Source: a virus
Taxonomy: Duplodnaviria > Caudoviricetes
Length of the DNA: 52,843 bases
Direction: 5' to 3' (one strand)
Virus record (IMG/VR): IMGVR_UViG_3300045789_000414
Location: 1 to 52,843 of that record
This document shows, piece after piece, positions 117 through 19,537 of this stretch (positions within the stretch are counted from its first letter, which is position 1; each line of letters starts with the position of its first letter). Below the pieces are notes generated by a model. The model had not been told where the DNA came from and did no database searches. It worked only from the letters and a program-made list of their open reading frames with translations. A program made the position numbers and the translations under genes.

Positions 117-141
117 ACGCCTAACAAGGCTCATTAGATCG
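117..141 (+). other. attC remnant (R'' box and start of left arm)
   Basis: ACGCCTAAC-AAGGCTCA; ACGCCTAAC is the exact reverse complement of GTTAGGCGT at 52547-52555. Confidence 0.6.
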
Positions 142-2413: not shown

Positions 2414-2768
2414 CAGTTAAAACCTCACTAACTGTAATTTCAGGCTTCATATCGAAACAACTAGGTTCGTTTAACTCATCGGCTGTTGCGTGTTGTGACA
2501 CTGTGTTTTCTGCGAAGTGCTCTAACTTCTCACCGCTCCTGCAAATAAGCTCAATATCATTAAAGGGTTTATTACGTGGATTAGCGCCCATCGACCAAGC
2601 ATCTTGACGGCATCCGTTAATAGCATCTTTTATATCGTCTATCTCATAACCTTCTTTCAATCTGTCTTTAATAGCCTTGCTTCGCTTAGGTGTTAGCTTG
2701 CATTTATTAGGGTTTTTGTCCATCGCCACAACCCAGTAATTGAATATGTATTGTATATCGTCTTTCAT
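2376..2768 (-). CDS. Phage replication initiator/replisome-organiser-like protein (likely start MKDDIQ at 2768)
   Basis: IFNYW...LTPKR..AIK.RLKEGY..DDIKDAI.GC..D.W motif typical of phage replication proteins; GGAG RBS before ATG 2768. Confidence 0.55.
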   Translation of the reverse strand: MKDDIQYIFNYWVVAMDKNPNKCKLTPKRSKAIKDRLKEGYEIDDIKDAINGCRQDAWSMGANPRNKPFNDIELICRSGEKLEHFAENTVSQHATADELNEPSCFDMKPEITVSEVLTDDDTESKDDYIK

Positions 2769-2890
2769 ATTAACTCCGTTAGTCAATCCGTATAAAAAAG
2801 CTGCGGCGTTGAGTACGGTTCTCAATGTTCGGTAATTATCCTAGCCGCAACTTAAAGTCTTGTTTATTCCGCTTATTGCTGCTGTTAGCT
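2768..2890 (+). other. Degenerate long attC-like site
   Basis: TATTAAC...TAGTCAATCCGTATAAA...TTTATTCCGCTTATTGCTGCT-GTTAGCT; right arm intact, left arm decayed. Confidence 0.55.
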
Positions 2891-3163
2891 GTCTTGAACT
2901 ACCCAGTTATTCTTTTCCATTGCGCTAGCTGCACAACCATGAAAAACGCCTCTCTGAAATTGTGCAATGTCTTGCGCTTTATACGCTCGATCACATACAT
3001 TGCAATCATCGTCATGGTATTTATTCAGCATTGTCATAAGCTCTTTTTCAGCATCTTCTAAATGATCTATGTATTTATACATAATCTGAATCTGATTTTT
3101 CATTGACTCAATTTCATATTCTTGCGAGTCTGTTTTATTTTCTAAGTTTTCAACATATTCCAT
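2885..3163 (-). CDS. Hypothetical coiled-coil protein carried in an attC cassette (2885-3252)
   Basis: 92-aa ORF; stop inside GTTAGCTGT, which matches ACAGCTAAC at 3199-3207. Confidence 0.7.
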   Translation of the reverse strand: MEYVENLENKTDSQEYEIESMKNQIQIMYKYIDHLEDAEKELMTMLNKYHDDDCNVCDRAYKAQDIAQFQRGVFHGCAASAMEKNNWVVQDS

Positions 3164-3200
3164 AGCATTTTTCCCATCTGGTGAAATTGGTTAATCAAAC

Positions 3201-3258
3201 AGCTAACAAAGCGCTCAATCGGACTGCGCAAGCTTGCAGCTTAGCGCAAAGGTTATGT
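3201..3258 (+). other. attC site (58 bp)
   Basis: AGCTAAC-AAAGCGCTCAATCGGACTGC...GCAGCTTAGCGCAAAG-GTTATGT; R''/R' boxes; L'' GCGCT(C)AA pairs with L' TTAGCGC leaving an extra base. Confidence 0.85.
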
Positions 3259-4008
3259 TGCACTAATTCTATCTTGTGCAATCTTAAAGTATTCTTCTAC
3301 CTTCTCAATTCCAACAAAATCCCTATTATTTATCTTTGCCATCTTTCCTGTAGTACCGCTTCCCATAAATGGGTCGAAGACTGTATCACCTTCGTTGCTC
3401 CAGCTTATAATATGATCGTGTGCTAGTTTTTCAGGGAAAATTGCTGGGTGGCCTGTCCCATTGCCACCTGTGCCATATCGCCATACATTTGATCGCCTAC
3501 TGTATTCGCCTGTAGTCAAGTATTTATCGCTTTTTACGTTTGCACCTTTGTTAATTACCTTATCTTTACGCTTTCTTGCCCCTGCTGTTTTGTTCTTGTG
3601 GTCTACAATAAAATTTAATGCTTTCGGCTTTCCTTTACTGAAAACAAACATATATTCAACTACATTGTAGTAACGGTCTTGCGTGGGTATTCTTGAGGCT
3701 TTCTCAAAGAACATCGTGTCATGCAAATTAAACCCACACTCCTTCGCCCATAACGCTTGACTGAATGACGTACCTGTCTCACTGCCTTTAATTGTTGCGT
3801 CACCAACCACCCAAACAACAACGCCACCTTGCTTTGTCACCCTATGTAGCTCTTTGATGACCACTTTCCAAACGTGCTCCCCCCACTGCTCATTGTTGCC
3901 GTTGTAGCTTCTGAGATTATCGTAAGGTGGCGAGGTTACTGTTAAATCAATACAGCCATCGTCCATTTCTGCCATAGCTTTCAGACAGTCATCGTTTATT
4001 AATTTCAA
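3253..4008 (-). CDS. Site-specific DNA methyltransferase, N4-cytosine/N6 family, in attC cassette (3253-4086)
   Basis: TSPPY, HPAIFP, DPFMGSGTT motifs. Confidence 0.92.
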   Translation of the reverse strand: MKLINDDCLKAMAEMDDGCIDLTVTSPPYDNLRSYNGNNEQWGEHVWKVVIKELHRVTKQGGVVVWVVGDATIKGSETGTSFSQALWAKECGFNLHDTMFFEKASRIPTQDRYYNVVEYMFVFSKGKPKALNFIVDHKNKTAGARKRKDKVINKGANVKSDKYLTTGEYSRRSNVWRYGTGGNGTGHPAIFPEKLAHDHIISWSNEGDTVFDPFMGSGTTGKMAKINNRDFVGIEKVEEYFKIAQDRISAT

Positions 4009-4036
4009 TTTATTCTCCTAGTTTTGTGAAGGCGCA

Positions 4037-4092
4037 ACATAACAAAGCAAGTCAGTCGGACGCTTTCAGCGCCGCTGCTCGCAAGGTTATTT
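4037..4092 (+). other. attC site (56 bp)
   Basis: ACATAAC-AAAGCAAGTCAGTCGGACGC-TTTCA-GCGCCGCTGCTCGCAAG-GTTATTT. Confidence 0.85.
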
Positions 4093-4281
4093 ATCTACAG
4101 GCAACATATCCCTACAAGTAACCTTGCCACTTGTAGCGTCCTCAATTCGTATGGCTAAGCATAGCCCAGCATTACGATTACCGCTTAAGATATTGCTGAG
4201 GTAGCTTGGCAATATCCCAATCTTTTTTGCAAAGTCTTTCTTAAGAATTTTGTTCTCTTTTAAATATTTTTCTAATGTCAT
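4087..4281 (-). CDS. Cro-like XRE helix-turn-helix regulator
   Basis: MTLEKYLK...FAKKIGI.PSYLSNILSG.R...LAIRIEDATSGKVT. Confidence 0.85.
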   Translation of the reverse strand: MTLEKYLKENKILKKDFAKKIGILPSYLSNILSGNRNAGLCLAIRIEDATSGKVTCRDMLPVDK

Positions 4282-4475
4282 TTCTATTTCTCTTTTTTAT
4301 TAAATTCATCACCACCAAATAAAAGCCAGCACCTATCACATAAGCCATCATGGTTAGCACTTGCGTCACGTTCACCGCACTCTTCACATACTGGGCCTTT
4401 AAGGGCTACTATAAGTAATATTGCTAAGAATATTAGTAAGTAATACATGTATTTTCTCCTGCTTTTAATTCATTG

Positions 4476-4500
4476 TTCCGCTTATTACTGCTGTTATACG
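4476..4500 (+). other. attC right-arm remnant (L'-R')
   Basis: TTCCGCTTATTACTGCT-GTTATACG, near-identical to 2867-2890. Confidence 0.6.
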
Positions 4501-4766
4501 CCAAGCCTTTCGAATACGTGGAATACCAATCCGTTGTGCATAAAACCTGTCCCCGTATATCTGAACTTAAATCCAATCTGTCTTGGTATCTCATGACCAG
4601 TTCCAAACGCGTAAAACGACCTAGTTCGTAACTGATTATTTGTATTTACTCTTGCCCATAAGCAAAGGCTTCCCCCTTTGAATGCGGCAGTGAGTACTTC
4701 TGCTAGCGCTGGCATGTTAATCTCTGGGTTACTTGGGTCTATAATATATTTATGTATAGTATCCAT
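4494..4766 (-). CDS. Conserved phage hypothetical protein in a decayed cassette
   Basis: TIHKY...LCLWA.V...GTGH...VFHVFE pattern common in phages; flanked by GTTATACG and CGTGTAAC (4786-4793). Confidence 0.75.
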   Translation of the reverse strand: MDTIHKYIIDPSNPEINMPALAEVLTAAFKGGSLCLWARVNTNNQLRTRSFYAFGTGHEIPRQIGFKFRYTGTGFMHNGLVFHVFERLGV

Positions 4767-4923
4767 CTTGCTTCTCCGCTTAATTCGTGTAACAAGTCAC
4801 CCAAATTGAGTGTTAATTCATAACTTAACGATACTTTAACCGATGATTAAACATTATGCAAGAGGTAAATGTAATAAATGTAAAAAAAGACCCAGCCAAA
4901 GAACCTTCACTTGAAACGTGGGG

Positions 4924-4952
4924 TTGACAATGACCGAGCCTTATTTTATACT
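4924..4952 (+). promoter_or_regulatory. Sigma70-type promoter
   Basis: TTGACA-17bp-TATACT. Confidence 0.75.
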
Positions 4953-5413
4953 GCCATCTAATCAGCGAGTTAGTAGCTCCTGATTAGTTAGTTGAAGGAC
5001 ACCAACTCCTAGCAACTAATTGAATATATTTTAATTCAATTCATCTTAAAAAGCAAACGTTGGTTTTTAGTCTCGGTGGAAGTGACGGTCGGCTGAAGTA
5101 AAAACGTGATAGACGGGTGTATTTAATCACAACGCTAAGAGTGACTTTAGTAGAGCGGGTATATTGGATTAATCCTTGCCTTAACTCAGATTAAAGGGCG
5201 TATCGGGCGTAATACTGAGCTGTTCACAGCGATACAAAGCGATACCAGTTAAGGAAGTGTCCTTGCCTTAGCCTGAATGATACCGATGCTGATTCGCGTT
5301 AGGTTGATTTTTAGAAGCTCATCTTTACTCATACTTTAATGGGTAAGGGTGAGTATTGCCTGAATTCCTCCTCGCCTCAAACGCTTAGGTTAATAACATA
5401 AGGAATAAGAACA

Positions 5414-5842
5414 ATGACAATGACTGGTAAAGAGTATCTTGCAAAGCACGATAAAAAAGTAAAGTCTAAACTAAGGGCTAAGCGAAGAAAGGCAAAGAAG
5501 AAAAAACAAAATTTTTCTATAGGCTCTTTTGAACAAAATCAAATAAATTCTTCAGCAAGTAAAATGAGGCGGTATTCACATAAAGACTTAAAGAAAAAGA
5601 ATTATAGCGCCTTTTACAGGTCAGACGAATGGCTAAGAATCAGGTATCTGGCATTAAAGAATACTGACGGAAGATGCTGCTGTTGTGGAATATCTGCTAA
5701 AGATGGAGCAATACTAAACGTTGACCATATTAAGCCGCGATCAAGATACCCTGAGTTAGAACTAGACCTTGATAATATGCAAATACTATGCCAGTTTTGT
5801 AACACAGGGAAGGGCGCTTGGGACTGTACCGACTGGCGTTAG
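5414..5842 (+). CDS. HNH endonuclease with basic N-terminal extension
   Basis: FYRSDEW..R...CCCCG...LNVDHIKP...DNMQILCQFCN.GKG. Confidence 0.9.
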   Translation: MTMTGKEYLAKHDKKVKSKLRAKRRKAKKKKQNFSIGSFEQNQINSSASKMRRYSHKDLKKKNYSAFYRSDEWLRIRYLALKNTDGRCCCCGISAKDGAILNVDHIKPRSRYPELELDLDNMQILCQFCNTGKGAWDCTDWR

Positions 5843-5922
5843 TAAATGATTGCTATTGCCTAAAATAATAGACAGCATAAAGAACTTTTCTAAATTAATT
5901 TACATTTATTTATCAATTGGTA

Positions 5923-5950
5923 TTGACAGTACGGTTATTCGTGCTAATAT
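5923..5950 (+). promoter_or_regulatory. Sigma70-type promoter
   Basis: TTGACA-16bp-TAATAT with extended -10 TG. Confidence 0.55.
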
Positions 5951-5982
5951 GAACTTACACAAACGGTAAAGGAATAAATAAA

Positions 5983-6618
5983 ATGATTGATTTAACAAAG
6001 TTTAAACTTGAAGAACTTCAGAAAAAAATTAAAAAGACTGTTGATGGTAAGGATGTGGAAATCTATACAGTACATAAAGACCAAAAGTACCCTATATTTG
6101 GCGCCTTTCTAATTGATGACGAATGGGTGCAGAATGATTGGAAGAGAAACGGTGAGTATATGGACTGCCCCGAAGACAATAGAAATAACCTAAACCTATC
6201 AGCCTTCACGACGGAAATAGACTATAACCAATTACCAGTTGATACGCTTATAGAAGTTGAGGGCATAGGCAAAAGATATACAGCAGGGATGACTCCATGT
6301 CATGGCGATCTAGTCTTTTTTTTCAGTGACGGGAGGGACAGTAATACAGAAATAGAATATACACGCGCCGAAAAAGAAACATGCAAGCTAATAACCAACC
6401 CTAGGAAAGGATGGTTTGGCGGCGAAATCGGTATTCCTGATGGGGTTAAATTGAGAGTATGGGAGGCTGAGATATTGTTTGGCGTATTATATTCTAATAC
6501 CCGCATCAAAATAATGGATGAGGATTTACGCAAAGGATTTAACAAATCAAGTGGGCATACAGGAATAACCAGCTATCAAATACTAGGTGAAGATTATCAA
6601 GAAGGAGATGAATTATGA
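5983..6618 (+). CDS. Hypothetical protein
   Basis: 211-aa ORF with AAGGA RBS. Confidence 0.75.
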   Translation: MIDLTKFKLEELQKKIKKTVDGKDVEIYTVHKDQKYPIFGAFLIDDEWVQNDWKRNGEYMDCPEDNRNNLNLSAFTTEIDYNQLPVDTLIEVEGIGKRYTAGMTPCHGDLVFFFSDGRDSNTEIEYTRAEKETCKLITNPRKGWFGGEIGIPDGVKLRVWEAEILFGVLYSNTRIKIMDEDLRKGFNKSSGHTGITSYQILGEDYQEGDEL

Positions 6619-6748
6619 TTGACCAAAGAAGAAACTGTGAAGAACGCGATAGACGAGAAAACCGCAAACTAAGAAACTCAATGATTGCTTTTTATTCAAT
6701 CCTTGGCGTTAGTATATTGGCTTTAACTCACACGATTTACGCAGCGCT

Positions 6749-7168
6749 ATGAATACATTTACTCAATCATTAGCAATCAATATCGGTAACTCAAGAACCG
6801 ATGCTAGTTTTGATTGCTATGTTTATCTCGATAGCTTCTGTGAAGATTTTAAAATGAATATTGGGGTTACGGTTAAGCTTGAGGTTGAGATGATTTTATA
6901 CGCTGATTCATCGCAGTACGAGACAAGCGACATTGAAATCAAAGAGGTTCGCTTAATCTTTGCTAACGACCAGCATGTTGACCTTACTTATGATGACTAT
7001 CAGTATAGGTCTATTGACTGCGATGAAATAAAAGAATACATATTATCTGAAGCAAGCACTGAAATAACTAAGGCATGGGCTGACGAAATTGAGGCCCAAG
7101 CAGAAGATGATGGAGACTACCGATATGAACTTCAAAAGCAGGAATTCTTGGATGAGGAAATGTTATGA
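6749..7168 (+). CDS. Acidic hypothetical protein
   Basis: 139-aa ORF in coupled operon; start uncertain. Confidence 0.65.
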   Translation: MNTFTQSLAINIGNSRTDASFDCYVYLDSFCEDFKMNIGVTVKLEVEMILYADSSQYETSDIEIKEVRLIFANDQHVDLTYDDYQYRSIDCDEIKEYILSEASTEITKAWADEIEAQAEDDGDYRYELQKQEFLDEEML

Positions 7169-7410
7169 ATAAAACAATAGAAATTTTAATTGACGAGCAG
7201 TACGGTGAAGAGATTTATGAGCTTACTTACTCGGTTAAAGGTGATGCCAGCGATGCTATAGAGACTCAAGCAATACAGATCATCATGTTAAAGGATAGCC
7301 AAGGCCACGATATAACAAGCGATGTTTCCAATCCGTTTTTAGAAGATGATGAATTTAGACGTGTTTGCATAGAGAAAGCCCTAGAATATGAAGAAGGTGA
7401 AATATTATGA
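7165..7410 (+). CDS. Acidic hypothetical protein
   Basis: ATGA overlaps on both sides. Confidence 0.7.
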   Translation: MNKTIEILIDEQYGEEIYELTYSVKGDASDAIETQAIQIIMLKDSQGHDITSDVSNPFLEDDEFRRVCIEKALEYEEGEIL

Positions 7411-8492
7411 GCAGGAATATTGCAGAATATATCGAAGATACCAAGGAAAGGTTTAACGAGATAGCACCTAACGGTATAAAGTATTCTTCTGAAAAAGGAT
7501 TCGCCATACAGTTATTAAAAGCTAATGAATATCTAATGGGCGTTGCAATAAAAAACCCGCAGTCATTACAGCAAGCAATAACAAACGTGGCTGCTATTGG
7601 TCTTTCTTTAAACCCTGCTGAGAAACTTGCTTACCTAATCCCTCGAAATGTTAAGGTCGGGAAGAGCTGGGAAAGTCGCGTCTATCTTGAGCCTTCTTAT
7701 ATGGGTTTAATAAGACTAGCAACTAACTCAGGCGGGATTGCTTGGATTCAGGCCGCCGTTGTTAAGCAGAATGACTCCTTTAAGGACGTAGGTATGGGGC
7801 AAGCGCCACTACATGAATATGAGGCTTTCGGTGATCGCGGTGATGTGGTTGGAGTATATGCTGTGGCCAAGACAAAAGACGGTGATTATCTAACAGAAAT
7901 AATGACGTTAGAAGAGGTCCATAAAATAAGGGATAGATCAGAAAGTTATAAAAAATACCAATCTGGCACTTGGGTAACTGACTTTATAGAAATGGCTAAG
8001 AAGGCCGTCATAAGACGATTATTCAAAACCCTACCATTGACCGATGAGAACGCAAGAATGGCTCATGCCATCGACCTGTCGAACGCTAACGCGGATATAG
8101 AGCAGATTGCTACATCGCCAAATGTCGGCAGCATATCAGTAGAACAAAAAAAGTTCTTTGATGAACTGATTGAAAAAGGTGACGCTTTCGGCATGACTGT
8201 CTTAATGAAGGGGCTTGATGAAAGAGAGTTTTCAAACTTGTATCATTCTTTCGAAAAAGGCACCAAGGGGAAGTATCAGAAGATAGTTGATGATCTAACA
8301 AAACGCGGCTCTAGCATCTTGGCTGATTATGTAACACAGTTCTCTGATATGTTAGAAGCTAACGACACTGACGGCGCTGGTGAGTTATTGGATGGAATGA
8401 ATAAAGAAGAGATTAACGTTATCTTGGATTCTTGCTCAACTGAGTGCTGTGCTTTTATTAATGAAGTTATTGAAAATGGTAGCGAGCTATGA
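7407..8492 (+). CDS. recT: RecT-family single-strand annealing recombinase
   Basis: AAIGLSLNP...AYLIP, SYMGLI.LA, W.TDF.EMAKKAVIRRLFKTLP. Confidence 0.88.
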   Translation: MSRNIAEYIEDTKERFNEIAPNGIKYSSEKGFAIQLLKANEYLMGVAIKNPQSLQQAITNVAAIGLSLNPAEKLAYLIPRNVKVGKSWESRVYLEPSYMGLIRLATNSGGIAWIQAAVVKQNDSFKDVGMGQAPLHEYEAFGDRGDVVGVYAVAKTKDGDYLTEIMTLEEVHKIRDRSESYKKYQSGTWVTDFIEMAKKAVIRRLFKTLPLTDENARMAHAIDLSNANADIEQIATSPNVGSISVEQKKFFDELIEKGDAFGMTVLMKGLDEREFSNLYHSFEKGTKGKYQKIVDDLTKRGSSILADYVTQFSDMLEANDTDGAGELLDGMNKEEINVILDSCSTECCAFINEVIENGSEL

Positions 8493-8887
8493 AAGAGAAT
8501 GAATGTCAATGGTGCGGAGGCCCCAAAACAATTAGAGAAGATGAAAGACCCTGTATATTTAGGATAAGGAAAACGTGTAGTCGTGAATGCAGAACTGCTT
8601 TAACAAATCACACAATGGCTAAGAAGAGAGCAGCCAATAAAATTGTAAAAAGAGTTGATATAAAGCCGCGAAGATGCCCAGAATGTGATAAACTATTTAG
8701 CATAAGAAAAAACGAAAGGGCCGATAGTTTTAAAAAATTGAAACGGTGCCCAGCTTGCACCGAAGAAAGAAACTCTACCAAGCCGTATAAATTGGAAGAA
8801 GTTCTATCAGTTTTAAAGAAGCGAGATAGGATGATGCAAATTGCAGTGCTTAGCCCGAAGATTGGGTTAATGCAATACATGAAATAA
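8489..8887 (+). CDS. Cys-rich zinc-finger protein
   Basis: CxxC...CSRxC and CxxC...CxxC repeats. Confidence 0.7.
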   Translation: MKENECQWCGGPKTIREDERPCIFRIRKTCSRECRTALTNHTMAKKRAANKIVKRVDIKPRRCPECDKLFSIRKNERADSFKKLKRCPACTEERNSTKPYKLEEVLSVLKKRDRMMQIAVLSPKIGLMQYMK

Positions 8888-8956
8888 CGCCGCTATAAGC
8901 GGTTGAAAATGAGGAGGAACGACGAATGAACAATCCGATTGATAGCCTTGTTATAT
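8882..8956 (-). other. attC site (75 bp)
   Basis: Minus strand ATATAAC-AAGGCTATCAATCGGATTG...CAACCGCTTATAGCGGC-GTTATTT. Confidence 0.85.
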
Positions 8957-9213
8957 GCAATGCCAATATAGAGCAGGGCTGGCGGTTTAGTACCGCAGAC
9001 TTTTCTTGTATTGCTAATGGTAGAAACAAGGCGGGAATAGTGCTCTTTATTAGAGAGCCAAGCGAAGTTGATAGGTGGCACATGCAGCCCGATGAGCTAA
9101 AAGAATCAGATGATTGCCCGCCTCTCTATGTTGTCGGGGAGGGAATGACTTTTGAAGAAGCGATTATAAATGCAAATTTGGCGGCAGCTCATGCGAAGCC
9201 GATAAGCATATAA
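8926..9213 (+). CDS. Hypothetical protein in attC cassette (8888-9213); RBS and start lie inside the attC
   Basis: GAGGAGG-N8-ATG within the attC loop; stop in GCATATAAC. Confidence 0.65.
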   Translation: MNNPIDSLVICNANIEQGWRFSTADFSCIANGRNKAGIVLFIREPSEVDRWHMQPDELKESDDCPPLYVVGEGMTFEEAIINANLAAAHAKPISI

Positions 9214-9265
9214 CACCCGCATAACCAGCGCATCTTTTAGCGTCCGGTTCATGCGATGGTTAGAA
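9208..9265 (-). other. attC site (58 bp)
   Basis: Minus strand TTCTAAC-CATCGCATGAACCGGACGC...GCGCTGGTTATGCGGGT-GTTATAT; close homologue of 52211-52266. Confidence 0.85.
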
Positions 9266-9292
9266 CAAATTTTAATTAGAAAAGGAAATAAA

Positions 9293-9619
9293 ATGACAAA
9301 TAAAATAGGTGTAAGCCTCAAAATTGATGTAAGCAAGATTGACAAAACAAGATTGTTTGAAGGCACCAAGGGAACTTATTTAGACGCAACTGTTTTTATT
9401 GATATTAACAATGAAGATCAGTACGGCAATAACGGATTTATAGCTCAATCAGTTAGCAAAGAAGAGCGGAAACAAGGCGTTAAGGGCGCGATACTAGGTA
9501 ACGTTAAGGTCTTTTATAAAGACAATAGCGAGTCTCAACAAGGCGGTAATTTTAGCGATGCTCCTAAGCAGCCTTCAGGCGCGATGGATGATTTTGATGA
9601 TGATATAATACCGTTTTAA
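9293..9619 (+). CDS. Phage single-stranded DNA-binding-like protein
   Basis: KIDVSKIDK..LF.G.KGTYLD...DQYGN.GFI.Q...ILGN; acidic tail DDFDDDIIPF; AAGGA RBS before ATG 9293. Confidence 0.75.
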   Translation: MTNKIGVSLKIDVSKIDKTRLFEGTKGTYLDATVFIDINNEDQYGNNGFIAQSVSKEERKQGVKGAILGNVKVFYKDNSESQQGGNFSDAPKQPSGAMDDFDDDIIPF

Positions 9620-9648
9620 TTGACTCCATTCTAATTAGTGCGTACAAT
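9620..9648 (+). promoter_or_regulatory. Sigma70-type promoter for the downstream HNH-like gene
   Basis: TTGACT-17bp-TACAAT. Confidence 0.55.
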
Positions 9649-9677
9649 ATAAGTACACATAGAATGGAGGTTAAGCA

Positions 9678-10163
9678 ATGTTTGAAAAGAAATGCTTTAA
9701 ATGCGGAGAGACTAAGCAACTCTCCGATTTCTACAGGCACAGTAAAATGAAAGATGGTCATGTTAATAAGTGTAAGGAGTGTAACAAGTCTGACGTTAGC
9801 GCAAATTACCGTAAGAATATTGACCATTATAAGGCTTACGAGAAAAGCAGGGCTAACTTGCCTCACAGAGTTAAAGCTAGGAAGGATTACTCTAATTCAG
9901 AGGCTGGACTTGAAGCTGGTAAAATAGCTAGAAAAGCTTGGGTAGAAAGAAACGCCATAAAAAAAGGCGCTTCGACGATGGTTCGTAATGCTGTACGTAA
10001 CGGGAAATTAATTAGACCTAGTCATTGTTCAGATTGTGAATGCGAGCATAATAGATTACACGGGCACCACGATGATTATTCAAAGCCTTTAGATGTAAGA
10101 TGGCTTTGCCCAACTTGCCATAAGCAGTGGCATAAAATAAACGGTGCCGGATTGAATGGTTAA
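9678..10163 (+). CDS. Phage HNH-like zinc-finger endonuclease
   Basis: CFKCGETK.L.DFY...CKEC; C..C...HGHHDDYSKPLDVRWLC..CH. Confidence 0.8.
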   Translation: MFEKKCFKCGETKQLSDFYRHSKMKDGHVNKCKECNKSDVSANYRKNIDHYKAYEKSRANLPHRVKARKDYSNSEAGLEAGKIARKAWVERNAIKKGASTMVRNAVRNGKLIRPSHCSDCECEHNRLHGHHDDYSKPLDVRWLCPTCHKQWHKINGAGLNG

Positions 10164-10265
10164 TTTTAATCTTAGGTGAGTACATTCTGATACTACAACT
10201 CGTATATAGTCCTGCTGCCTTCAGGCTTAACGCCGTTCCTGAAGTACAGCTCTATATAGGATTAG

Positions 10266-10472
10266 ATGATTTTTATGACTAATTGGATTGATTCAGAAGA
10301 TGAAGTAAAACCCGTTGTAGCTAGAACGGTGTTGGCATATTGCCCTGACTGGAACAATAGCGGGTATCAAGTGTGTTACTGGGATGGGAAGGTTTTTAGG
10401 TACGAAGAGCAACCTAATGACGACTTCCATACCTATGTGAACTCATGGGCGATATTTATGGAAGCCGATTAA
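10266..10472 (+). CDS. DUF551-like small phage protein
   Basis: NWI.....P.....VL..........V..W pattern. Confidence 0.55.
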   Translation: MIFMTNWIDSEDEVKPVVARTVLAYCPDWNNSGYQVCYWDGKVFRYEEQPNDDFHTYVNSWAIFMEAD

Positions 10473-10475
10473 GGC

Positions 10476-10548
10476 ATATAACCAAAGTGTAGCTGGCGTG
10501 AATGAAGCGCCAGCGTAATGAACGTCCACGCTGACATAGTTGTTAGTG
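10476..10548 (-). other. attC site (73 bp)
   Basis: Minus strand CACTAAC-AACTATGTCAGCGTGGACG...CGCCAGCTACACTTTG-GTTATAT. Confidence 0.75.
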
Positions 10549-10560
10549 TGTAGGAGTTAG

Positions 10561-10899
10561 ATGATGGAAAGAGCGTTAATTGTAAGGCAGCCGTGGCTTG
10601 ATTTAATTTTGTCAGGTGAGAAAACTTGGGAAATGCGCAGTAAGCCTACAAAGGTGCGTGGGCGAATTGGGTTAATAGAGCAAGGCACTGGCCTAATTGT
10701 TGGTGAGTGCGAGCTGGTTAATTCTGGCGAGTCGATAAACAATTTTAATCTTGGTTACGGCCAGCATTTACACAAAGTGAATGATTTTGATTTGTTGGAA
10801 AAATGGCATTACCCGTGGGTATTAAGTAACGCGGTGCGGTATGAAGTGCCAATTAAATACAAACACCCGCGTGGAGCCGTAACGTGGGTGAGAATATAA
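10561..10899 (+). CDS. ASCH domain protein in attC cassette (10482-10899)
   Basis: ALIVRQPWLDLILSGEKTWEMRS (GxKxxExR) motif. Confidence 0.9.
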   Translation: MMERALIVRQPWLDLILSGEKTWEMRSKPTKVRGRIGLIEQGTGLIVGECELVNSGESINNFNLGYGQHLHKVNDFDLLEKWHYPWVLSNAVRYEVPIKYKHPRGAVTWVRI

Positions 10900-10949
10900 C
10901 GCCTAAAGAAGCCGCGCATCTATGCGTCGGCTTGCTTTACTTGTTAGCA
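10894..10949 (-). other. attC site (56 bp)
   Basis: Minus strand TGCTAAC-AAGTAAAGCAAGCCGACGCA-TAGA-TGCGCGGCTTCTTTAGGC-GTTATAT. Confidence 0.85.
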
Positions 10950-10953
10950 CTTT

Positions 10954-11253
10954 TTACGATGCCAAAGCACGAAGAACAGCACCAGGCTCTTTGGCGACAA
11001 CATTTAGCAAAACCAATGCCGGTCCATGAGGAGTACGGTCACCTCGCTCCCAGTGACGGAGCGTGCTCACACTGATACCAAACGCAGATGCGAATTCATT
11101 TTGAGACATGCCGACCTTTGCCCGAATATTTTTTACGTCCACTGGGCCAAACTCGTGAACGATGGCTTTTTTAACTTTACCCTCAGAAAACTCAATTGCC
11201 TCGGATAAGCCCTGTTTGATACTTGAGAAAGCGCTAGCCATTTGAACCACCAT
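10954..11253 (-). CDS. higA: HigA-type XRE-HTH antitoxin (NadS-like; probable start MASAF at 11241)
   Basis: DVKNIRAKVGMSQNEFA..FGISVSTLRHWERG.R.P.GPA..LL; downstream of toxin. Confidence 0.85.
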   Translation of the reverse strand: MVVQMASAFSSIKQGLSEAIEFSEGKVKKAIVHEFGPVDVKNIRAKVGMSQNEFASAFGISVSTLRHWERGDRTPHGPALVLLNVVAKEPGAVLRALAS

Positions 11254-11575
11254 AGTGCTTGAGTAAAAGTTGAGTTAATTTAGCAAGTTCATTGCGTTCA
11301 GCTTTGTTGATGTTAGCCTTTTCGCCCTTGCCAAAAACCGTTAAAAGAAAGAGTGGAATCTCGCCATTGTGATAGTAGTAAATCACTCTTACTCCACCAC
11401 TTTTCCCCCTTCCTTGAGCAGACCATCGAAGCTTCCTGATACCCCCAGTACCCTGCATAAGATCACTGGACTGAGGATGAGATGCTAAGTAATTGATAAT
11501 GCTCGCCTTTTCATCAGGCTTTAGTAGGCCTTCGGCGCGTTTCTGGAATTCAGGGAGCTCTACAATTGTCTGCAT
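11234..11575 (-). CDS. higB: RelE/HigB-2-type toxin
   Basis: GTGGIRKLRW...GKSGGVRVIYY...LLTVF.K.EKAN; toxin-first operon. Confidence 0.88.
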   Translation of the reverse strand: MQTIVELPEFQKRAEGLLKPDEKASIINYLASHPQSSDLMQGTGGIRKLRWSAQGRGKSGGVRVIYYYHNGEIPLFLLTVFGKGEKANINKAERNELAKLTQLLLKHYGGSNG

Positions 11576-11582
11576 AGGCCCA

Positions 11583-11612
11583 AGTGTAATCCATTGGATT
11601 ATAGTTCGTCAA
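11583..11612 (-). promoter_or_regulatory. TA promoter with palindromic operator
   Basis: TTGACG-18bp-TACACT on the minus strand overlapping TAATCCA-T-TGGATTA (11587-11601). Confidence 0.7.
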
Positions 11613-11627
11613 TGCATGGACTTGTAG

Positions 11628-11684
11628 TGCTAACAGTCACATAACAGGAAGCGTTTTTACTTCCTGTTCATGTGGCGGTTATGT
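11628..11684 (-). other. attC site (57 bp)
   Basis: Minus strand ACATAAC-CGCCACATGAACAGGAAG...CTTCCTGTTATGTGACT-GTTAGCA. Confidence 0.85.
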
Positions 11685-11939
11685 GAAGGCTTAATGAAAG
11701 GAGAGAGTATATGGCCATAGATAAATATATTGAAAAAAAACATAAATAATGCCTAATAAATCAGCTTGCATGATGTTAGCTAAAGTTAACGGAATAAACA
11801 CAAATAAACCAGTAAGATCATGTAAAATATAGCTTTAAGAACCTATCTTAGGACGGTTAGATGAGAACATGGAAAACAAAGTGCCTCGAAGAAGCAGGGA
11901 TATTAATAGCTGTTATTGATAAGCTAAGGGGTCTTAAGA

Positions 11940-12542
11940 GTGAGTAATCAAGCAGGGTCAGATAACAGTAAGCCCGAGTTAAAGAAGCTAACTGAGAGAG
12001 AAGAGTCCTTATGCCAAGCAATGTTAGTTAGCGATAACCAGTCTGAAGCATTCCGTAAGTCTAAGTATGCAACTGATAAAATGAGTCAGGCAACTATAAC
12101 TAAGCAGGCCAGCAGGTATTTCCAGAAACCCCATATTAGGGGGAGGATGGCTATTCTTACCCAAAAGCGTAACGAGAGATCAAAAATAGACGCTGATTAT
12201 GTTATAAAAAGACTGGCGGAAATAGATCAAATGGATGTCAAAGATATACTTGATGATGAAGGTGGATTGCTACCTGTCAATGAATGGCCTAAACAGTGGC
12301 GTATCACTGTTAGTGGTATAGAGGTGTCAAAGCTGAAAGTAGGGCAAGATGGCTCCGCTATACTTTCTAAGATTAAGTGGCCTGACAAAGTAAAGAACTT
12401 GGAGCTTATAGGCAAACATGTTGACGTCCAAGCATGGAGGGAAAAGATTGATGTCACCGTTGTGGACGAAGAAGATATATTGCAGAAGCGAATAAATAAA
12501 GTCGAAGAGCTGAAGAAATCGGCTCAACAAGCATCTGACTGA
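11940..12542 (+). CDS. terS: Terminase small subunit
   Basis: IDADYV..RL.EID.MD..DI...KIKWPDKVKNLEL.GKHVDVQA; directly upstream of TerL. Confidence 0.88.
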   Translation: MSNQAGSDNSKPELKKLTEREESLCQAMLVSDNQSEAFRKSKYATDKMSQATITKQASRYFQKPHIRGRMAILTQKRNERSKIDADYVIKRLAEIDQMDVKDILDDEGGLLPVNEWPKQWRITVSGIEVSKLKVGQDGSAILSKIKWPDKVKNLELIGKHVDVQAWREKIDVTVVDEEDILQKRINKVEELKKSAQQASD

Positions 12543-12545
12543 CAA

Positions 12546-13955
12546 TTGTCTAATTACGATCTAATTCTTACTGAGCAAATAGCCGAATATTACGATGACC
12601 CATTTGGTTTTGTTTTGTTTGCATTCCCTTGGGGGGAAGAGGGGCTAGTTAAGCCCGATACATGGCAGATAGATCAGCTGGTTGGTATAGGTGATGCTAT
12701 AAGTAAAGACCCAATGGGGACTATTCAAGAGGCTATTGCTTCAGGGCATGGTATAGGTAAGAGCACAGAGGTTGCATGGTTGATACTTTGGGCAATGAGC
12801 ACGAGGCCGCATCTAGCTGGATGGGTGACGGCAAATACACAAAACCAATTAACTAAAAAGACATGGCGTGAACTGGCTATTTGGCATAAGCGCATGATTA
12901 ACAAAGACTGGTTCAAGTGGACAGCAACGAGGTTTTTCCATGTCAAGCACCCTGAAACCTGGGGAATGGACGCAATACCTTGGTCTGAACATAACTCAGA
13001 GGCGTTCGCTGGGCTTCATGCTAAGTACGTCCTAATTATTATGGATGAGGCTAGTGCTATCGCAGATGTAATATGGGAGGTTGCCGAGGGAGCGATGACA
13101 ACACCTAGGGCGATGTGGTTTTGTTTTGGTAACCCTACGCGTAATACGGGGCGATTTAGAGAATGCTTTGGAAAATATAAGCACAGATGGCGCAACAGGA
13201 GGATAGATAGCCGTACGTGCGCTATGACTAACAAGGCTAAGATAAAAGAATGGGAGGATGACCACGGGGTAAACTCAGACTTCTTTAAGGTTCGCGTCCG
13301 CGGAGAGTTCCCTATGTCCGGCTCGAATCAGCTAATAAACAGTGGGGCAGTTGAAGAAGCGTTAAAGCGTGACCTGCTTCCAGAAGACTTTAGGTTTATG
13401 CCGATAGTTATAGGGTGTGATGTAGCGAGGTTTGGAACTGATGAGACAGTTATCACGGTTAGGCAAGGCAGAAAGCAGCTTAGCCAAGCCGTGTATATGG
13501 GTATGGATAACATACAGGTTGCTTCTAAATGCGCTGAGACGTACAGGGAATATGAGAGTAAAGGCACTTTAATGGTTGACGAGGTCGGTGTCGGGGCGGG
13601 TGTTGTCGATTATTTAAAGAGCATGGGTTATCCGGTTATTGGGGTAAACGCTGGGTCTAGCGCTGATGACAAAAAAAGGTTCTTCAATAAAAGAGCTGAA
13701 ATGTGGTTTAGAATGAAGGAGTGGATAGAAGCTGGCGCTGATATAGTGGACGACAGTGAGCTATCCGAGCAGCTTATTAGCCCAGAGTATACTTACACGC
13801 CAAAGGAGCAGATCAAGCTAGAGAAAAAAGAGGAAATGAAGGCGAGGGGGCTTTCTAGTCCTGATAGGGGGGATGGGTTAGCCTTGACGTTTGCTCAAAT
13901 AGTAGCGCCTAACCAAATACAAAGCAGTTTTGAACCGGATAGCTACGACCTATAA
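12546..13955 (+). CDS. terL: Terminase large subunit
   Basis: Walker A ASGHGIGKS, Walker B IIMDEAS, GNPTR, nuclease GCDVARFG.D and SPDRGD. Confidence 0.95.
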   Translation: MSNYDLILTEQIAEYYDDPFGFVLFAFPWGEEGLVKPDTWQIDQLVGIGDAISKDPMGTIQEAIASGHGIGKSTEVAWLILWAMSTRPHLAGWVTANTQNQLTKKTWRELAIWHKRMINKDWFKWTATRFFHVKHPETWGMDAIPWSEHNSEAFAGLHAKYVLIIMDEASAIADVIWEVAEGAMTTPRAMWFCFGNPTRNTGRFRECFGKYKHRWRNRRIDSRTCAMTNKAKIKEWEDDHGVNSDFFKVRVRGEFPMSGSNQLINSGAVEEALKRDLLPEDFRFMPIVIGCDVARFGTDETVITVRQGRKQLSQAVYMGMDNIQVASKCAETYREYESKGTLMVDEVGVGAGVVDYLKSMGYPVIGVNAGSSADDKKRFFNKRAEMWFRMKEWIEAGADIVDDSELSEQLISPEYTYTPKEQIKLEKKEEMKARGLSSPDRGDGLALTFAQIVAPNQIQSSFEPDSYDL

Positions 13956-14020
13956 CTTGATAAACAGCTTTATTGAATGAAATTAGGCTACCATTTCTCA
14001 AAACTAATCGTGAGAAATAG

Positions 14021-14377
14021 ATGATTGAGCAATTATCACCAGCAGAAATGAAGGAGGCAATAGCAAATGATCGTTATTGCAAAGAGTTAGGCGTAGCACT
14101 ATTTAAATCGAATCGCAGCCGTAAGTGGTATTTAGAGGTCGTAGATCACGGCAAACTAGCCATCGTAAAAATACCAGAGATCAGCATGAAGTACGGCGTT
14201 ATTGTGCATTTAACACAGTCAATCGAAGTTGATATAAAACGCGTTGTATTTGCAGGAGCAGAGCTTCTAGAGCGATTTAATCTAACACGAGGCAAGAGTG
14301 ATAATGATGATCTATTAAGCCTTGAGCGTAACATAGCAGGCGTTGTAGGTGCTAAAGACGGCGAGATATCAGTATGA
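14021..14377 (+). CDS. Hypothetical protein
   Basis: 118-aa ORF between TerL and portal. Confidence 0.7.
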   Translation: MIEQLSPAEMKEAIANDRYCKELGVALFKSNRSRKWYLEVVDHGKLAIVKIPEISMKYGVIVHLTQSIEVDIKRVVFAGAELLERFNLTRGKSDNDDLLSLERNIAGVVGAKDGEISV

Positions 14378-16521
14378 TGAATGAAGTCGATCAGTACGAG
14401 GATTTAACGCAGGATGATATTGAGGGCTTAGCAGAAGAAGCTAGGTTGCAAGCATGGCTAGAGGAATCAAGAAGTGCCTATGCTGGCTCAACCGATTACC
14501 TAGAAAGCTCGCTACGTCGCCAATGGGAAATCAACCTTCATAACTTCCAAGGGCGACACAGAGACGAGTCAGAAAGAAAGAAGAAGATATTTAGGCCAAA
14601 GATACGAACATCGCTTAGATCGCATGAAGCATCTTTAGCAGCGGCATTGTTCACAAACAACGATGTGCTCGACGTAAAAGGCGCTAATCCAAACGACAAA
14701 GTTCAAGATATATCAGCAAAACTCAACAAAGAGTTAGTTCAGCATCGACTTGATGTGACTATTCCATGGTTTCAAACGGTAATGGGTGCGTATCAAGATG
14801 CAAATGTTTACGGTGTCTGCGCCTCTAAGACTTATTGGGAGTATGAAGTAAAGCGAACCACAGCGATAGAACCTTATCTTGATGAGTACGGCGAGCCTAT
14901 TTTTGATGAAGATGGCGAGATAATGGGTGAAGAGGTTATTACTGACGAGGAAGTCTTAAAGGATGAGCCTGTTATAGACCTATTAGCGCCTGAGAATTTA
15001 TTGCATGACCCTAATGCCGATTGGCGGAATCCTGTTCATGATAGCCCGTACATCATCGAAATCATGCCTATGTTTGCAGGTGATGTTATCGAGAGAATGG
15101 GCAAGCAAGACGATAAAACTTTAGCACCCTCTTGGTATGAGTACAGTATTGAGCAGGTTATGGCGCATGGGCAGGCTGATGATAATGAGTCATTAAGACA
15201 AGTCAGAGCAGGTAATAAGGCAGACCCTAACGACGTCAACGTTAAAAAAGAACATAAAACCGTTTATGTACACTTCAATATCATCAAGAAAGACGGCGTT
15301 GATATGGCGTTCTATACGCTAGGCACAGGGCTTATGTTAAGTGAGCCAGTACCATTGACTGATTATTATCAGTTAGGCAGAGATACTTACACGGTCGGAA
15401 CTTCAATCATTGAGACGCATAGGACCGTACCAGGCGCATTAGCAGAACTGGGTGAGAACCTTCAGCGTGAAGCTAACGTAATCGCTAATCAGCGCCTAGA
15501 GAATGTAAGGTTGGTTCTAAATAAGCGTTACTTCATTAGAAATCAAAGCAATGTTGATCTGGCCGCCTTAATGCGTAATGTCCCTGGCGGTGGTGTCATG
15601 GTTGAGAATCCAAACGAGGACGTAAAGATTGTTAACACGCCTGACGTAACGGGGTCGAGTTATGCTGAGCAGGACCGCTTAAACATGGATATTGATGAGG
15701 TGATGGGCTCATTTAGTCAGTCAACCATAGCGGCTAATAGAACGTTAAATGAAACGGTTGGGGGCATGAACTTGATGTCAGCAGCTACCAATGACGTTCA
15801 AGAATACATGATGCGTACGTTTATCGAAACATGGGTAGAGCCAGTGATGAGGGCAATAAGCAAGCTGGAGCAAATGTACGAGACAGACACGGCCGTTTTA
15901 TCGGTAGCGGGTGATAAAGCAGGTATTCGAGATCAACTAATACAAATAGCAGGTTCTCAAGAGTACCTAGACAAGCTCATCCAGCAAGACCTGTTAGTTA
16001 AAGTTAATGTTGGCATGGGTAATACAAACCCTGAGCAGAAACTAAAACGACTAATGATGGCTATTAACACGGTTAGCGGTATGCCTGAAGCGGCAGGCAA
16101 AACAGACTGGGAAGAGGTTACTAAGGAAGTCTACTCATTCGCCGGCTATGGCGATGGTGGGCGGTTCTTGAAAAAAGATGACCCTGAAGCCCAGCCGCAG
16201 ATGCCAGTTGAGTTACAGATGGAGCAGGCTAAGCAAAAGTTTGAGATGGAGAAGCTTCAGTTAACGCTATCCCATGATTCACAAATGCAACAAATGAAGA
16301 TACAGACTGATTCTGAAGTTAGTTTAGTAGAGTCAAATAACCGACGTGAGCTGGAGCTTATTAAGCTGGCTGAATCAAAAGACCTAAAACTAGAGGATTT
16401 ACGAACAAAGCTGCAAATCGAATCAAGCAAGGATAAGACTAAGCGTGATATTGAAGCTTTAAAAGCTAACACAAGTAACCGTGAAATGAATATCAAGACG
16501 ACAATGGGCAGTGGTATATGA
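14374..16521 (+). CDS. Portal protein (podovirus type, C-terminal coiled-coil barrel)
   Basis: 715 aa after TerL; LQRE.N.I.NQR.ENV; Q/E-rich helical tail. Confidence 0.85.
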   Translation: MMNEVDQYEDLTQDDIEGLAEEARLQAWLEESRSAYAGSTDYLESSLRRQWEINLHNFQGRHRDESERKKKIFRPKIRTSLRSHEASLAAALFTNNDVLDVKGANPNDKVQDISAKLNKELVQHRLDVTIPWFQTVMGAYQDANVYGVCASKTYWEYEVKRTTAIEPYLDEYGEPIFDEDGEIMGEEVITDEEVLKDEPVIDLLAPENLLHDPNADWRNPVHDSPYIIEIMPMFAGDVIERMGKQDDKTLAPSWYEYSIEQVMAHGQADDNESLRQVRAGNKADPNDVNVKKEHKTVYVHFNIIKKDGVDMAFYTLGTGLMLSEPVPLTDYYQLGRDTYTVGTSIIETHRTVPGALAELGENLQREANVIANQRLENVRLVLNKRYFIRNQSNVDLAALMRNVPGGGVMVENPNEDVKIVNTPDVTGSSYAEQDRLNMDIDEVMGSFSQSTIAANRTLNETVGGMNLMSAATNDVQEYMMRTFIETWVEPVMRAISKLEQMYETDTAVLSVAGDKAGIRDQLIQIAGSQEYLDKLIQQDLLVKVNVGMGNTNPEQKLKRLMMAINTVSGMPEAAGKTDWEEVTKEVYSFAGYGDGGRFLKKDDPEAQPQMPVELQMEQAKQKFEMEKLQLTLSHDSQMQQMKIQTDSEVSLVESNNRRELELIKLAESKDLKLEDLRTKLQIESSKDKTKRDIEALKANTSNREMNIKTTMGSGI

Positions 16522-16835
16522 ATAAGTCAGAAATAACACCGGAAGATTTAACGCCTGAGTTTCAGAATGACACAGAAAAGCGTTTATTCTCAAAGGCTCA
16601 AGATGGGCTAACGGCAGACAGCTTTTTGACGAGCCCCGTTGGTAGAATGGTTATAGAGAGATCTCAAGCCGAGGTCAACGAGATATCGGCAAAGTTATTA
16701 GGTGCGGATATGGACGAAATAAAGGAGCTACAAATCAAAGCAAGAGTGGCGATAGAAGCCGTTAATTGGCTTGTTAACGTTGTCGAAAACGGAGAGCTCG
16801 CTCATCAACAACTAGAGGCAATGAGAAATGAATAG
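16518..16835 (+). CDS. Small head-module protein
   Basis: FLTSPVGR motif; conserved position after portal. Confidence 0.65.
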   Translation: MNKSEITPEDLTPEFQNDTEKRLFSKAQDGLTADSFLTSPVGRMVIERSQAEVNEISAKLLGADMDEIKELQIKARVAIEAVNWLVNVVENGELAHQQLEAMRNE

Positions 16836-18152: not shown

Positions 18153-18206
18153 TACATCAATGAAGGTGTAAGCAGTTATTTTAATATTAATAAAAAGGAT
18201 TTAATT

Positions 18207-19151: not shown

Positions 19152-19167
19152 ACTAAAGGAGAAAATT

Positions 19168-19527: not shown

Positions 19528-19537
19528 GGAGAAAGAC

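Follow-up and report, generated by a model that had tools for sequence, protein, structure and literature searches.

Palindromic sequences able to fold into bulged hairpins are found at the gene boundaries of a marine phage genome, the viral record IMGVR_UViG_3300045789_000414, which was analysed along its entire length of 52,843 bp (the window). They resemble attC, the site at which cassettes are recombined in integrons, the gene-capture devices of bacteria. The locus therefore raises the question of whether these hairpins are attC sites in the proper sense and, if so, how cassettes could be moved in a genome of this kind. Taken together, the evidence makes it likely that the hairpins are genuine integron attC sites, and the cassettes which they delimit are probably recombined by an integrase of the host, acting in trans. 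Action of a host integron integrase (IntI) in trans seems the simplest reading because no recombinase is encoded in the phage, and recombination is probably still ongoing.

The record has a 69-bp terminal direct repeat and a GC content of 42.5%, and its completeness is rated 100% by CheckV. Near 4.8-5.4 kb there is a control region, on either side of which an accessory arm is transcribed outwards. The leftward arm, made up of - strand genes, extends from ~4.8 kb via the record ends to ~43.7 kb, while the rightward arm, with + strand genes, extends from 5.4 to 11 kb. A structural block, including small and large terminase, a SU10-type portal and a 3,228-aa protein, occupies the region from ~11.9 to 43 kb. 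Six-frame searches of the whole record for tyrosine recombinases (PF00589), integron integrases (TIGR02249) and Y1 transposases (PF01797) gave no match at E<=1. The combination of intI, adjacent attI and cassette promoter (Pc) which defines a complete integron was thus not found, with 0 matches to TIGR02249 and PF00589 at that threshold. An earlier note, drawn up from the letters of this DNA, had described a complete genome devoid of tyrosine recombinases, and this description holds.

Structure of the hairpins and matches to attC models

The eight sites reported in Table 1 are named after their positions, 3201 and 11628 being also called 3202 and 11629 after the starts of the corresponding model matches. 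All eight positions were correctly given in the earlier note, together with the TAAC...GTTA boxes, which are present at 8 of 8 sites. Location at gene boundaries, also proposed there, is reflected in the stop TAA of the abutting gene, which falls within the TAAC core at 6 of 8 sites; at site 3201 the stop codon of gene 3253-4008(-) is contained in the GTTA core. The morphogenesis block had been described as free of sites, and no well-formed one was found within 12-43 kb. The palindromes had all been called well-formed: this is true of six, which share one fold, and not of 8882, which has a 31-nt loop, or of 10476, which folds poorly, as two separate hairpins. Remnants exist, as had been suggested, in the form of a weak site (52432-52553), a collapsed site (119-139) and a core (2884-2890).

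In the fold shared by the six sites, TAAC is followed by ~3 unpaired nt, a stem with 1-2 bulged bases, a loop, the return stem, ~3 nt and GTTA. Folding energies, calculated with DNA parameters, range from -9.6 to -14.8 kcal/mol for 56-58 nt. The pattern TAAC-N35-65-GTTA occurs 56 times in the genome, against 30.0 +/- 5.7 in shuffled sequences, and 0 of 100 shuffles reach 56. An ungapped repeat search missed these bulged palindromes. The reference site attC(aadA1) of plasmid R100 reads, on the coding strand, R'' GTCTAAC, 5 nt, GTT, a bulged C, AAGCCG, a bulged A, the stem and R' GTTAGAT. The phage sites show the spacing found both in attC(aadA1) and in a consensus of 19 attCs, i.e. R'', 8 nt, first bulge, 6 bp and a bulged A, except that at 11629 and 10476 the second bulge is absent or the fold is off that form. 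The L'' arm of site 10894, CAAGCCGACGC, is identical to the L'' of attC(aadA1).

Rfam contains no attC family, and the window has 0 matches to Rfam at gathering score; dedicated covariance models were therefore built. An IntI1 query retrieved 80 loci with IntI1-like integrases, and a regular expression combined with a folding screen on the array side of these loci yielded 34 distinct attCs. Nineteen short attCs aligned cleanly, and RNAalifold assigned to them a 7-bp R box, a 5-nt spacer, 3 bp, a bulge and 6 bp. Model R1 was built on these 19 sequences, model R2 on 122 R1 matches from integron loci, and model R3 on 22 phage-borne attCs, three of them from the window (3202 is among them, while 4037 and 8882 are outside the training set). 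Since the training set of R3 was chosen by means of R2, the two cannot count as independent, and the E-values of these home-built models are rough, because calibration was shortened. The window was searched by R1 and R2 with filters off. The specificity of R1 is illustrated by the 121 of 122 matches (E<=0.1, in 1.1 Mb of integron loci) which fall on the array strand.

The check by covariance model suggested in the earlier note was positive: models derived from real integron attCs match the sites, and R2 alone detects five of them at E<=0.076 (Table 1). R3 detects all eight at E<=0.03, the next match in the genome having E=0.87. Within 12-43 kb, R2 produces three partial alignments in structural genes (21224, 27499 and 24262; E 0.11-0.81), and R3 no match below E=1.7. 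No R2 match at E<=1 was found in 80 kb of phage contigs related by large terminase (TerL). In Tetrasphaera phage TJE1, R2 finds three matches (E<=1.4e-5), located on the gene strand at gene ends. No R2 match at E<=1 was obtained in Polaribacter phage P12002L (L154), whose attCs had been predicted in the literature with another tool; one of those two failed to recombine. Reciprocally, when R3, trained on phage attCs, is applied to 50 integron loci, it detects 77 sites, and 76 of these lie on the array strand. Sites 8882, 9208 and 10894 lie within 2.1 kb, each with R2 E<=0.0044 and without intI, and correspond to the usual description of an integrase-less cluster, at least two attCs in 4 kb without intI. 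By sequence and structure, the hairpins are thus members of the attC family.

It is very unlikely that they instead have a purely regulatory function, at the RNA or DNA level, from a position behind stop codons, e.g. as terminators, mRNA stabilisers or translational couplers. Such a role would suit the position of the hairpins, each of which comes after a stop codon, as well as site 8882, which encloses the ribosome-binding site and ATG of the next gene; attCs are believed, in addition, to include weak terminators (PMC9892861). By the criterion for intrinsic terminators, however, 0 of 8 hairpins are called terminator-like on the coding strand, no T-run follows them, and terminator-like sites in 2500-12000 number 8 against 7.3 expected by chance. 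Regulation would moreover leave unexplained the junction signature and the breakpoints described below. A secondary regulatory role may exist alongside recombination.

Junction signature and breakpoints among related phages

The bases that come after G^TT in an integron are part of the following cassette. For this reason the R' remainder is complementary to the R'' of the next cassette, and not to that of its own hairpin. This relation was evaluated in eight arrays from the window and its relatives. R'(n) and R''(n+1) are complementary at 7/7 positions in 14 of 21 adjacent pairs and at >=6/7 in 17 of 21, whereas complementarity of a box to its own partner reaches 7/7 at only 1 of 29 sites. When the observed boxes were re-paired at random in 50,000 trials, the mean was 2.3 and the maximum 9 (p<=2e-5). 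Two real arrays used as positive control, L070 and L067, show the signature in 8/8 pairs. The same relation is found at the remnants: the GCCTAAC of 119-139 is complementary to the preceding R' GTTAGGC, and the core 2884-2890, which has no covariance-model match, is 7/7 complementary to the R'' of site 3202. Judging from these boxes, the sites carry the junction signature of cassettes that have been excised and re-inserted.

Relatives of the window were identified by a sequence pattern derived from sites 9208 and 52211, which led to eight stretches in viral contigs. Two of the contigs, G001 (28 kb) and G003 (35 kb, with terminal repeats), are 82-98% identical to the window over 48251-10255, and their late regions are unrelated to it; their loci are indicated as L089 and L096, respectively. 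Comparison of these sequences provided the other check suggested in the earlier note, i.e. that gene-content breaks of relatives should fall at the G^TT / TAA^C cores. They do so at 8888, 9208-9213, 52263, 134, 52546 and 2887 (Table 1), and about 12% of the positions in these arms are within 3 nt of a TAAC or GTTA. Contigs from four runs (X2, X3, X4 and X9, from four studies) all cease matching at 8888, and several run contigs match a single attC only, with foreign flanks on both sides.

The slot 8888-9213 is the most informative. Four different contents are found between common flanks, 97-100% identical, in the window (one cassette), L089, L096 and L134; in a further locus, L095, which has seven attC matches, the right flank alone is shared. 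A single unit of hairpin plus ORF (open reading frame) is all that distinguishes L134 from L089, which have 98.8% identity over 677 nt; the unit is bounded on one side by the end of AGCTAAC and on the other by the end of ATAAC. The gain and loss of accessory genes at the sites, as the earlier note had it, is supported by this single-cassette difference. The hairpin travels with the gene located downstream on the coding strand, as the strand on which the models match would predict. In the other arm, the methyltransferase cassette 3253-4086 is missing in G001 and G003, and in L095 homology to the end of the methyltransferase gene 3253-4008 ceases at G^TT. Natural variants thus differ by units ending at the canonical crossover. 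Separately, L095 was seen to carry another methyltransferase allele, as a cassette in the other array.

Conserved boundary hairpins could also serve general homologous recombination, or the phage RecT and exonuclease, as points at which small early genes are shuffled, the likeness to attC being due to descent or to convergence without an integrase. Both proteins are encoded in the window, and the main variable slot comes right after the RecT operon. In addition, attC sequences 85-98% identical to one another are associated with unlike ORFs from phage to phage, a source of 55-60 nt of homology, and some mosaic joints are off the cores. This explanation is nonetheless improbable. Homologous recombination does not predict the complementarity of boxes between successive sites; at 8888 the shared sequence stops at TAAC, and the hairpins which follow are unrelated in the window, L089 and L096; finally, the side of the hairpin at which units end agrees with the strand polarity of attC.

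A TnpB-only insertion of the IS200/IS605 type is located near site 52211, between ...TTTATT and GTTAAATT, at 6 nt from the attC, and on its own strand comes after TTAAC. It is missing in G001, G003 and the metagenome contig L131, all with intact flanks; it must be recent, because the flanks are 100% identical in L131. Both of its ends are joints off the cores. Its closeness to the attC, beside TTAAC, is what would suggest that the hairpins belong to IS200/IS605-type elements, as their ends or miniature derivatives, and are mobilised in single-stranded form by TnpA. Such an origin is extremely unlikely: the Y1 transposase is absent (PF01797, 0 matches), the hairpin is kept in G001, G003 and L131, where the insertion is absent, and the hairpins match attC models. 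The insertion is outside the cassette system.

Table 1. Coordinates of attC sites, cassettes, breakpoints and other features of the window. Box pairings are between the R' of a site and the R'' of the next one.
Feature	Position	Strand	Model matches	Remarks
attC 3201 (3202)	3201-3258	+	R1 E=0.0098; R2 E=8.3e-4, 23.2 bits; R3 E=4.6e-8 (in training set)	R'' AGCTAAC; R' GTTATGT, pairs with R''(4037) ACATAAC, 7/7; inner stem degenerate
attC 4037	4037-4092	+	R1 not listed; R2 E=1.7; R3 E=2.1e-5, 32.2 bits	R'' ACATAAC; fold -10.6 to -12.9 kcal/mol
attC 8882	8882-8956	-	R1 E=0.033; R2 E=4.4e-3, 20.4 bits; R3 E=1.9e-6	
attC 9208	9208-9265	-	R1 E=2.7; R2 E=3.5e-3, 20.8 bits	Arms identical to ~109-nt bacterial attC type; R' GTTATAT pairs with R''(8882) ATATAAC, 7/7
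attC-like 10476, doubtful, degenerate	10476-10549	-	R1 not listed; R2 no match; R3 E=0.012, 21.1 bits	
attC 10894, best of the set	10894-10949	-	R1 E=1.2e-4, 27.5 bits; R2 E=1.8e-5, 29.7 bits	
attC 11628 (11629), first of right-arm array	11628-11684	-	R1 not listed; R2 E=0.33; R3 E=0.029	Fold -14.1 kcal/mol; R' GTTAGCA pairs with R''(10894) TGCTAAC, 7/7
attC 52211, of 9208 type	52211-52266	+	R1 E=0.78; R2 E=0.076; R3 E=6.2e-7	R' GTTAGCT pairs with R''(52432) AGCTAAC, 7/7
Weak 122-nt attC	52432-52553	+	R2 8.7 bits, only E=4.9	R'' AGCTAAC; R' GTTAGGC
Collapsed attC remnant	119-139	+	Weak R1 match, E=9.5	GCCTAAC, 8 nt, (A)TTAGAT
R'-type core	2884-2890	+		GTTAGCT without recognisable hairpin; starts cassette 2885-3252
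Cassette, 92-aa ORF (2885-3163, -)	2885-3252	+		G^TT-bounded; other DNA in G001, G003
Cassette, N6/N4 DNA methyltransferase (3253-4008, -)	3253-4086	+		Pfam PF01555, E=9e-44; sites 3202, 4037
Cassette, 95-aa ORF (8926-9213, +)	8888-9213	-		Hypervariable slot
Cassette, toxin-antitoxin	10900-11633	-		Canonical orientation; sites 11629, 10894
Breakpoint	8888			Three sequences share ...GAAATAAC, then unrelated hairpins or sequence
Breakpoint	9208-9213			Four sequences converge at ATAAC
Breakpoint	52263			GTTA, then three different continuations (window, G001, G003)
Breakpoint	134			G001 homology resumes at TTAGAT
Breakpoint	52546			G003 homology resumes at GTTAGGC
Breakpoint	2887			GTTA, then three different continuations (window, G001, G003)
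Breakpoint	~4086			Joint up to 13 nt from GTTA
RecT	7407-8492			Main variable slot begins right after its operon
Exonuclease	48246-49457			
N6/N4 DNA methyltransferase genes (two)	1682-2413 and 3253-4008			Second is the attC-bounded cassette
TnpB-only IS200/IS605-type insertion, 1,355 bp	50850-52204	-		Pfam OrfB_IS605, Cas12f1-like TNB

From 10255/10256 on, one alternative sequence, TGCTAAGTATTGA..., takes the place of that of the window in G001, G003, L095 and contigs of three runs, the point of change having no TAAC or GTTA core. Beyond it the late regions of G001 and G003 are unrelated to the window, so that the early region is common to phages provided with different structural modules.

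Segment 9574-10184, which contains an endonuclease gene (9678-10163; phrog_2340, EndoVII/Lar-like), is missing in G003, L095 and contigs of runs X2, X4 and X9, the run contigs having 22-25 other letters in its place, and its limits are not at an attC core. This indel looks like presence or absence of a free-standing homing-endonuclease gene.

A 19-nt motif, CCGCTTATTRCTGCTGTTA, was noticed at 2869-2887 and 4478-4496, two copies against 0.02 expected. Each copy terminates in a GTTA containing the stop codon of a - strand gene, with no recognisable hairpin. The copy reaching 2884 coincides with a boundary between cassettes in G001 and G003. The motif could represent half of a decayed attC or else an entry site akin to attI.

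Inverted polarity, bacterial counterpart and proposed mechanism

Every model match falls on the strand opposite to that of the adjoining phage genes, + for the leftward arm and - for the rightward one, a feature that the earlier note had missed. The bulged bases point the same way: on the coding (top) strand of aadA1 they occupy the 5' arm, on the coding strand of the phage the 3' arm, which makes the latter strand equivalent to the attC bottom strand. Polarity was quantified by taking the longest ORF in each interval between attCs, the phage set consisting of the window and five related or similar contigs. The ORF is opposite to the attC in 18 of 23 phage intervals, on the same strand in 4 and absent in 1. 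In bacterial-type arrays from metagenomes it is on the attC strand in 42 of 53 intervals and opposite in 11 (Fisher p=1.2e-6). The polarity of the phage cassettes is inverted. Within the window, the canonical organisation, a top-strand ORF upstream of attC, is clear only in the toxin-antitoxin cassette 10900-11633, composed of a RelE/ParE-like toxin (11234-11575(-), Pfam PF06296) and a Xre-type antitoxin (10954-11253(-), HTH_3/MqsA), with a promoter-like site at 11612-11583(-). Of 23 small cassette ORFs, 21 remain below the cut-off of every Pfam family, and the exception among relatives is one methyltransferase.

In the inverted cassettes, translation start signals fall within the recombination site. 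The 31-nt loop of site 8882 includes a GAGGAGG ribosome-binding site and the ATG (8926) of ORF 8926-9213, and the weak attC 52432-52553 likewise overlaps the start of ORF 52261-52506.

Three other viral records, G002, G004 and G005 (L104-L109), have attC matches and nothing in common with the window beyond the attC type. G005 contains four co-oriented sites ~260 nt apart, each interval being occupied by a 68-71-aa ORF on the opposite strand, so the inverted layout is not confined to one phage lineage. In the five other viral records with the same attC type, two of which are close relatives, 0 of 5 have a protein above the IntI cut-off; G005 encodes ordinary tyrosine recombinases ~28 kb from its attC sites.

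The pattern derived from sites 9208 and 52211 also retrieved 41 metagenome stretches, and R2 has 109 matches at E<=0.05 in 40 loci. Most matches in the metagenome arrays are co-oriented attCs of ~109 nt, spaced by 0.3-1.9 kb. Their arms, ATCGCATGAACCGGACGCGC...GCGCGCCGGTTATGCG, are letter-for-letter the same as in the phage 9208 type, in which the variable middle of the ~109-nt attC is reduced to a short loop; versions of 58-63 nt also occur. Six array contigs which were checked have a GC content of 41-47%, against 42.5% in the phage. A search for an integrase beside the matching arrays (tblastn with IntI1, on short contigs) revealed only a generic recombinase, 25% identical, in the phage-like contig L124. 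As a side observation, L112-L152 comprise dozens of contigs, many from one metagenome, with near-identical ~109-nt attCs and mostly top-strand ORFs; these arrays are probably part of a large sedentary chromosomal integron in a bacterium of 41-47% GC.

Another possibility is that the phage sites are inert relics: a bacterial chromosomal integron would have contributed one or more fragments by illegitimate recombination, and their attCs would be decaying passengers in which recombination has ceased. Some sites are indeed degenerate (10476, 119-139, the 2884 core and the inner stem of 3202), the toxin-antitoxin cassette resembles a typical cassette of chromosomal integrons, and capture via off-target or illegitimate recombination has been suggested by Qi et al. 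(PMC9892861). Decaying passengers are nonetheless hard to reconcile with the four cassette contents found between nearly identical flanks and with the single-cassette difference between L134 and L089. Sites are moreover present in two arms, with a polarity which tracks gene direction, and the ORFs have the orientation opposite to the bacterial one, so that the arrays are more than a plain copy of a bacterial one. An origin as inert relics is accordingly quite improbable.

Recombination by a host integrase could proceed as follows. The integron integrase of the infected cell would bind the folded bottom strand and cut between A and C of 5'-TAA^C, equivalent to G^TT on the top strand. Cassettes would be excised as circles and re-inserted at other attCs, either in co-infecting phages or in the integron of the host. 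The mobile unit would consist of a hairpin followed by the downstream ORF, whose TAA stop would be the conserved core triplet, and hypervariable slots would result, occupied by small early genes, by a methyltransferase and by a toxin-antitoxin pair. Because ORFs are on the attC bottom strand, cassettes would be read by phage promoters rather than by the integron Pc. The bottom strand is the non-template strand of transcription and, if genes are co-oriented with replication, would be the lagging-strand template as well. Expression driven by phage promoters would be served by the inverted polarity, which may also help to expose the bottom strand.

Several observations weigh against recombination by a host integrase. 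No integrase, attI or host was identified, and the dependence on IntI is something that we infer. The ORF polarity is the reverse of that of bacterial cassettes. In the hairpins, the unpaired spacer is ~3 nt long vs 5 in bacterial attC, the outer R-box bases depart from RYYYAAC/GTTRRRY, and the first bulged base is not constant (C, G, A or T); R2, a purely bacterial model, is weak or gives no match at 3 of 8 sites (11629, E=0.33; 4037, E=1.7; 10476, none). Mosaic breakpoints are off the cores at 10255, 9573 and 10185, and the joint near 4086 is displaced from GTTA. Breakpoints alone cannot exclude homologous recombination, because replaced segments have by definition shared flanks. Circular-cassette or excision junctions were not listed among the assembled Logan contigs, in which uncovered parts are not informative. 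Finally, 35 phage cassette proteins were compared with the bacterial arrays, and no close match was found; a single fragment was hit, by two methyltransferases at 39-41% identity, which lends no support to exchange with a bacterial integron.

The identity of the host was sought by several routes. Megablast against isolate phages revealed no match for window 2700-12000 or 12000-32000. TerL relatives are <=56% identical, and those of TerL and exonuclease taken together loosely indicate phages of Vibrio, Aeromonas and Pseudomonas, at ~44% identity. A protein atlas returned viral clusters only, RecT had 2 distant matches only in 400 gammaproteobacterial genomes, and the toxin matched plasmid homologues, <=54% identical and taxonomically scattered.

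A wider picture is tentatively put forward as a possibility. A widespread group of marine phages might keep a pool of phage-adapted cassettes, each made of a mini attC and a small early ORF on the bottom strand, which would be expressed only from phage promoters and silent if captured at a bacterial attI, with the recombinogenic strand as non-template strand and probably as lagging-strand template. The pool, storing counter-defence genes, would be shuffled between co-infecting phages by the SOS-induced integrase of the host. Testable predictions follow from the analysis, concerning which strand recombines, where the junction forms and whether turnover needs the host IntI. The cassettes also provide a set of small hypervariable phage ORFs for counter-defence screening.

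Comparison with known systems

The phage sites share with bacterial integrons, both class 1 and sedentary chromosomal, the R''-L''-L'-R' organisation, bulges at conserved spacing and crossover at G^TT, as well as the R' remainder in the next cassette, toxin-antitoxin cassettes and homogeneous attC types. They differ by the absence of intI, attI and Pc and by the bottom-strand ORFs. They are also miniaturised in comparison with the matching bacterial type, 56-58 nt vs ~109 nt, and have a 3-nt spacer. The occurrence of one attC type in a ~109-nt bacterial and in a 56-58-nt phage form bears on the origin of cassettes and of attC sites.

In T4-type phages, promoter-stem-loop (PeSL) cassettes form hyperplastic regions, in which repeated hairpins flank small variable early ORFs. 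PeSLs are thought to work via homologous recombination, and carry promoters. The sites of the window, in contrast, match attC models and show the G^TT cassette signature.

Interplay between phages and integron attCs is known for the Vibrio anguillarum prophage p16, reported to be excised at two attC sites of a chromosomal integron (PMC9892861). As described there, p16 has in common with the window a RelE/ParE toxin-antitoxin cassette, and differs in carrying a captured piece of the host integron, including intIA, whereas the attCs of the window are scattered over two arms between early genes that belong to the phage itself, and no integrase is present. According to passages of a preprint in which phage arrays are not treated, chromosomal integrons store anti-phage defence cassettes (bioRxiv 10.1101/2024.07.02.601686). 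If the wider picture proposed above is true, phage arrays would be the counterpart of such integrons.

The closest precedent is the work of Qi et al. 2023 (PMC9892861), in which 17 clusters of attC sites lacking integron integrases (CALINs), with methyltransferase cassettes, are reported in phages, and IntI1-mediated attC x attI1 recombination is described for 5/6 phage attCs tested. As in the window, attCs without intI in phage genomes are associated with methyltransferase cassettes. For the TJE1 cluster 3 attCs were reported, two of which were assayed with IntI1 (PMC9892861); in this phage attCs are on the gene strand after each ORF, while those of the window are on the opposite strand. The passages of that paper considered here contain no comparison of relatives, G^TT breakpoints or R'/R'' signature; its supplement, with 14 more phages, is outside the present comparison. 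A full-text literature search revealed no further paper on phage-borne attC sites. Clusters of attCs in phages are thus already published. What is new relative to these passages of PMC9892861 is the population evidence of turnover at the crossover, the inverted polarity of ORFs and the link to a specific bacterial attC type. The window and its relatives give evidence, at nucleotide resolution, of cassette turnover in natural phage populations, which these passages do not include.

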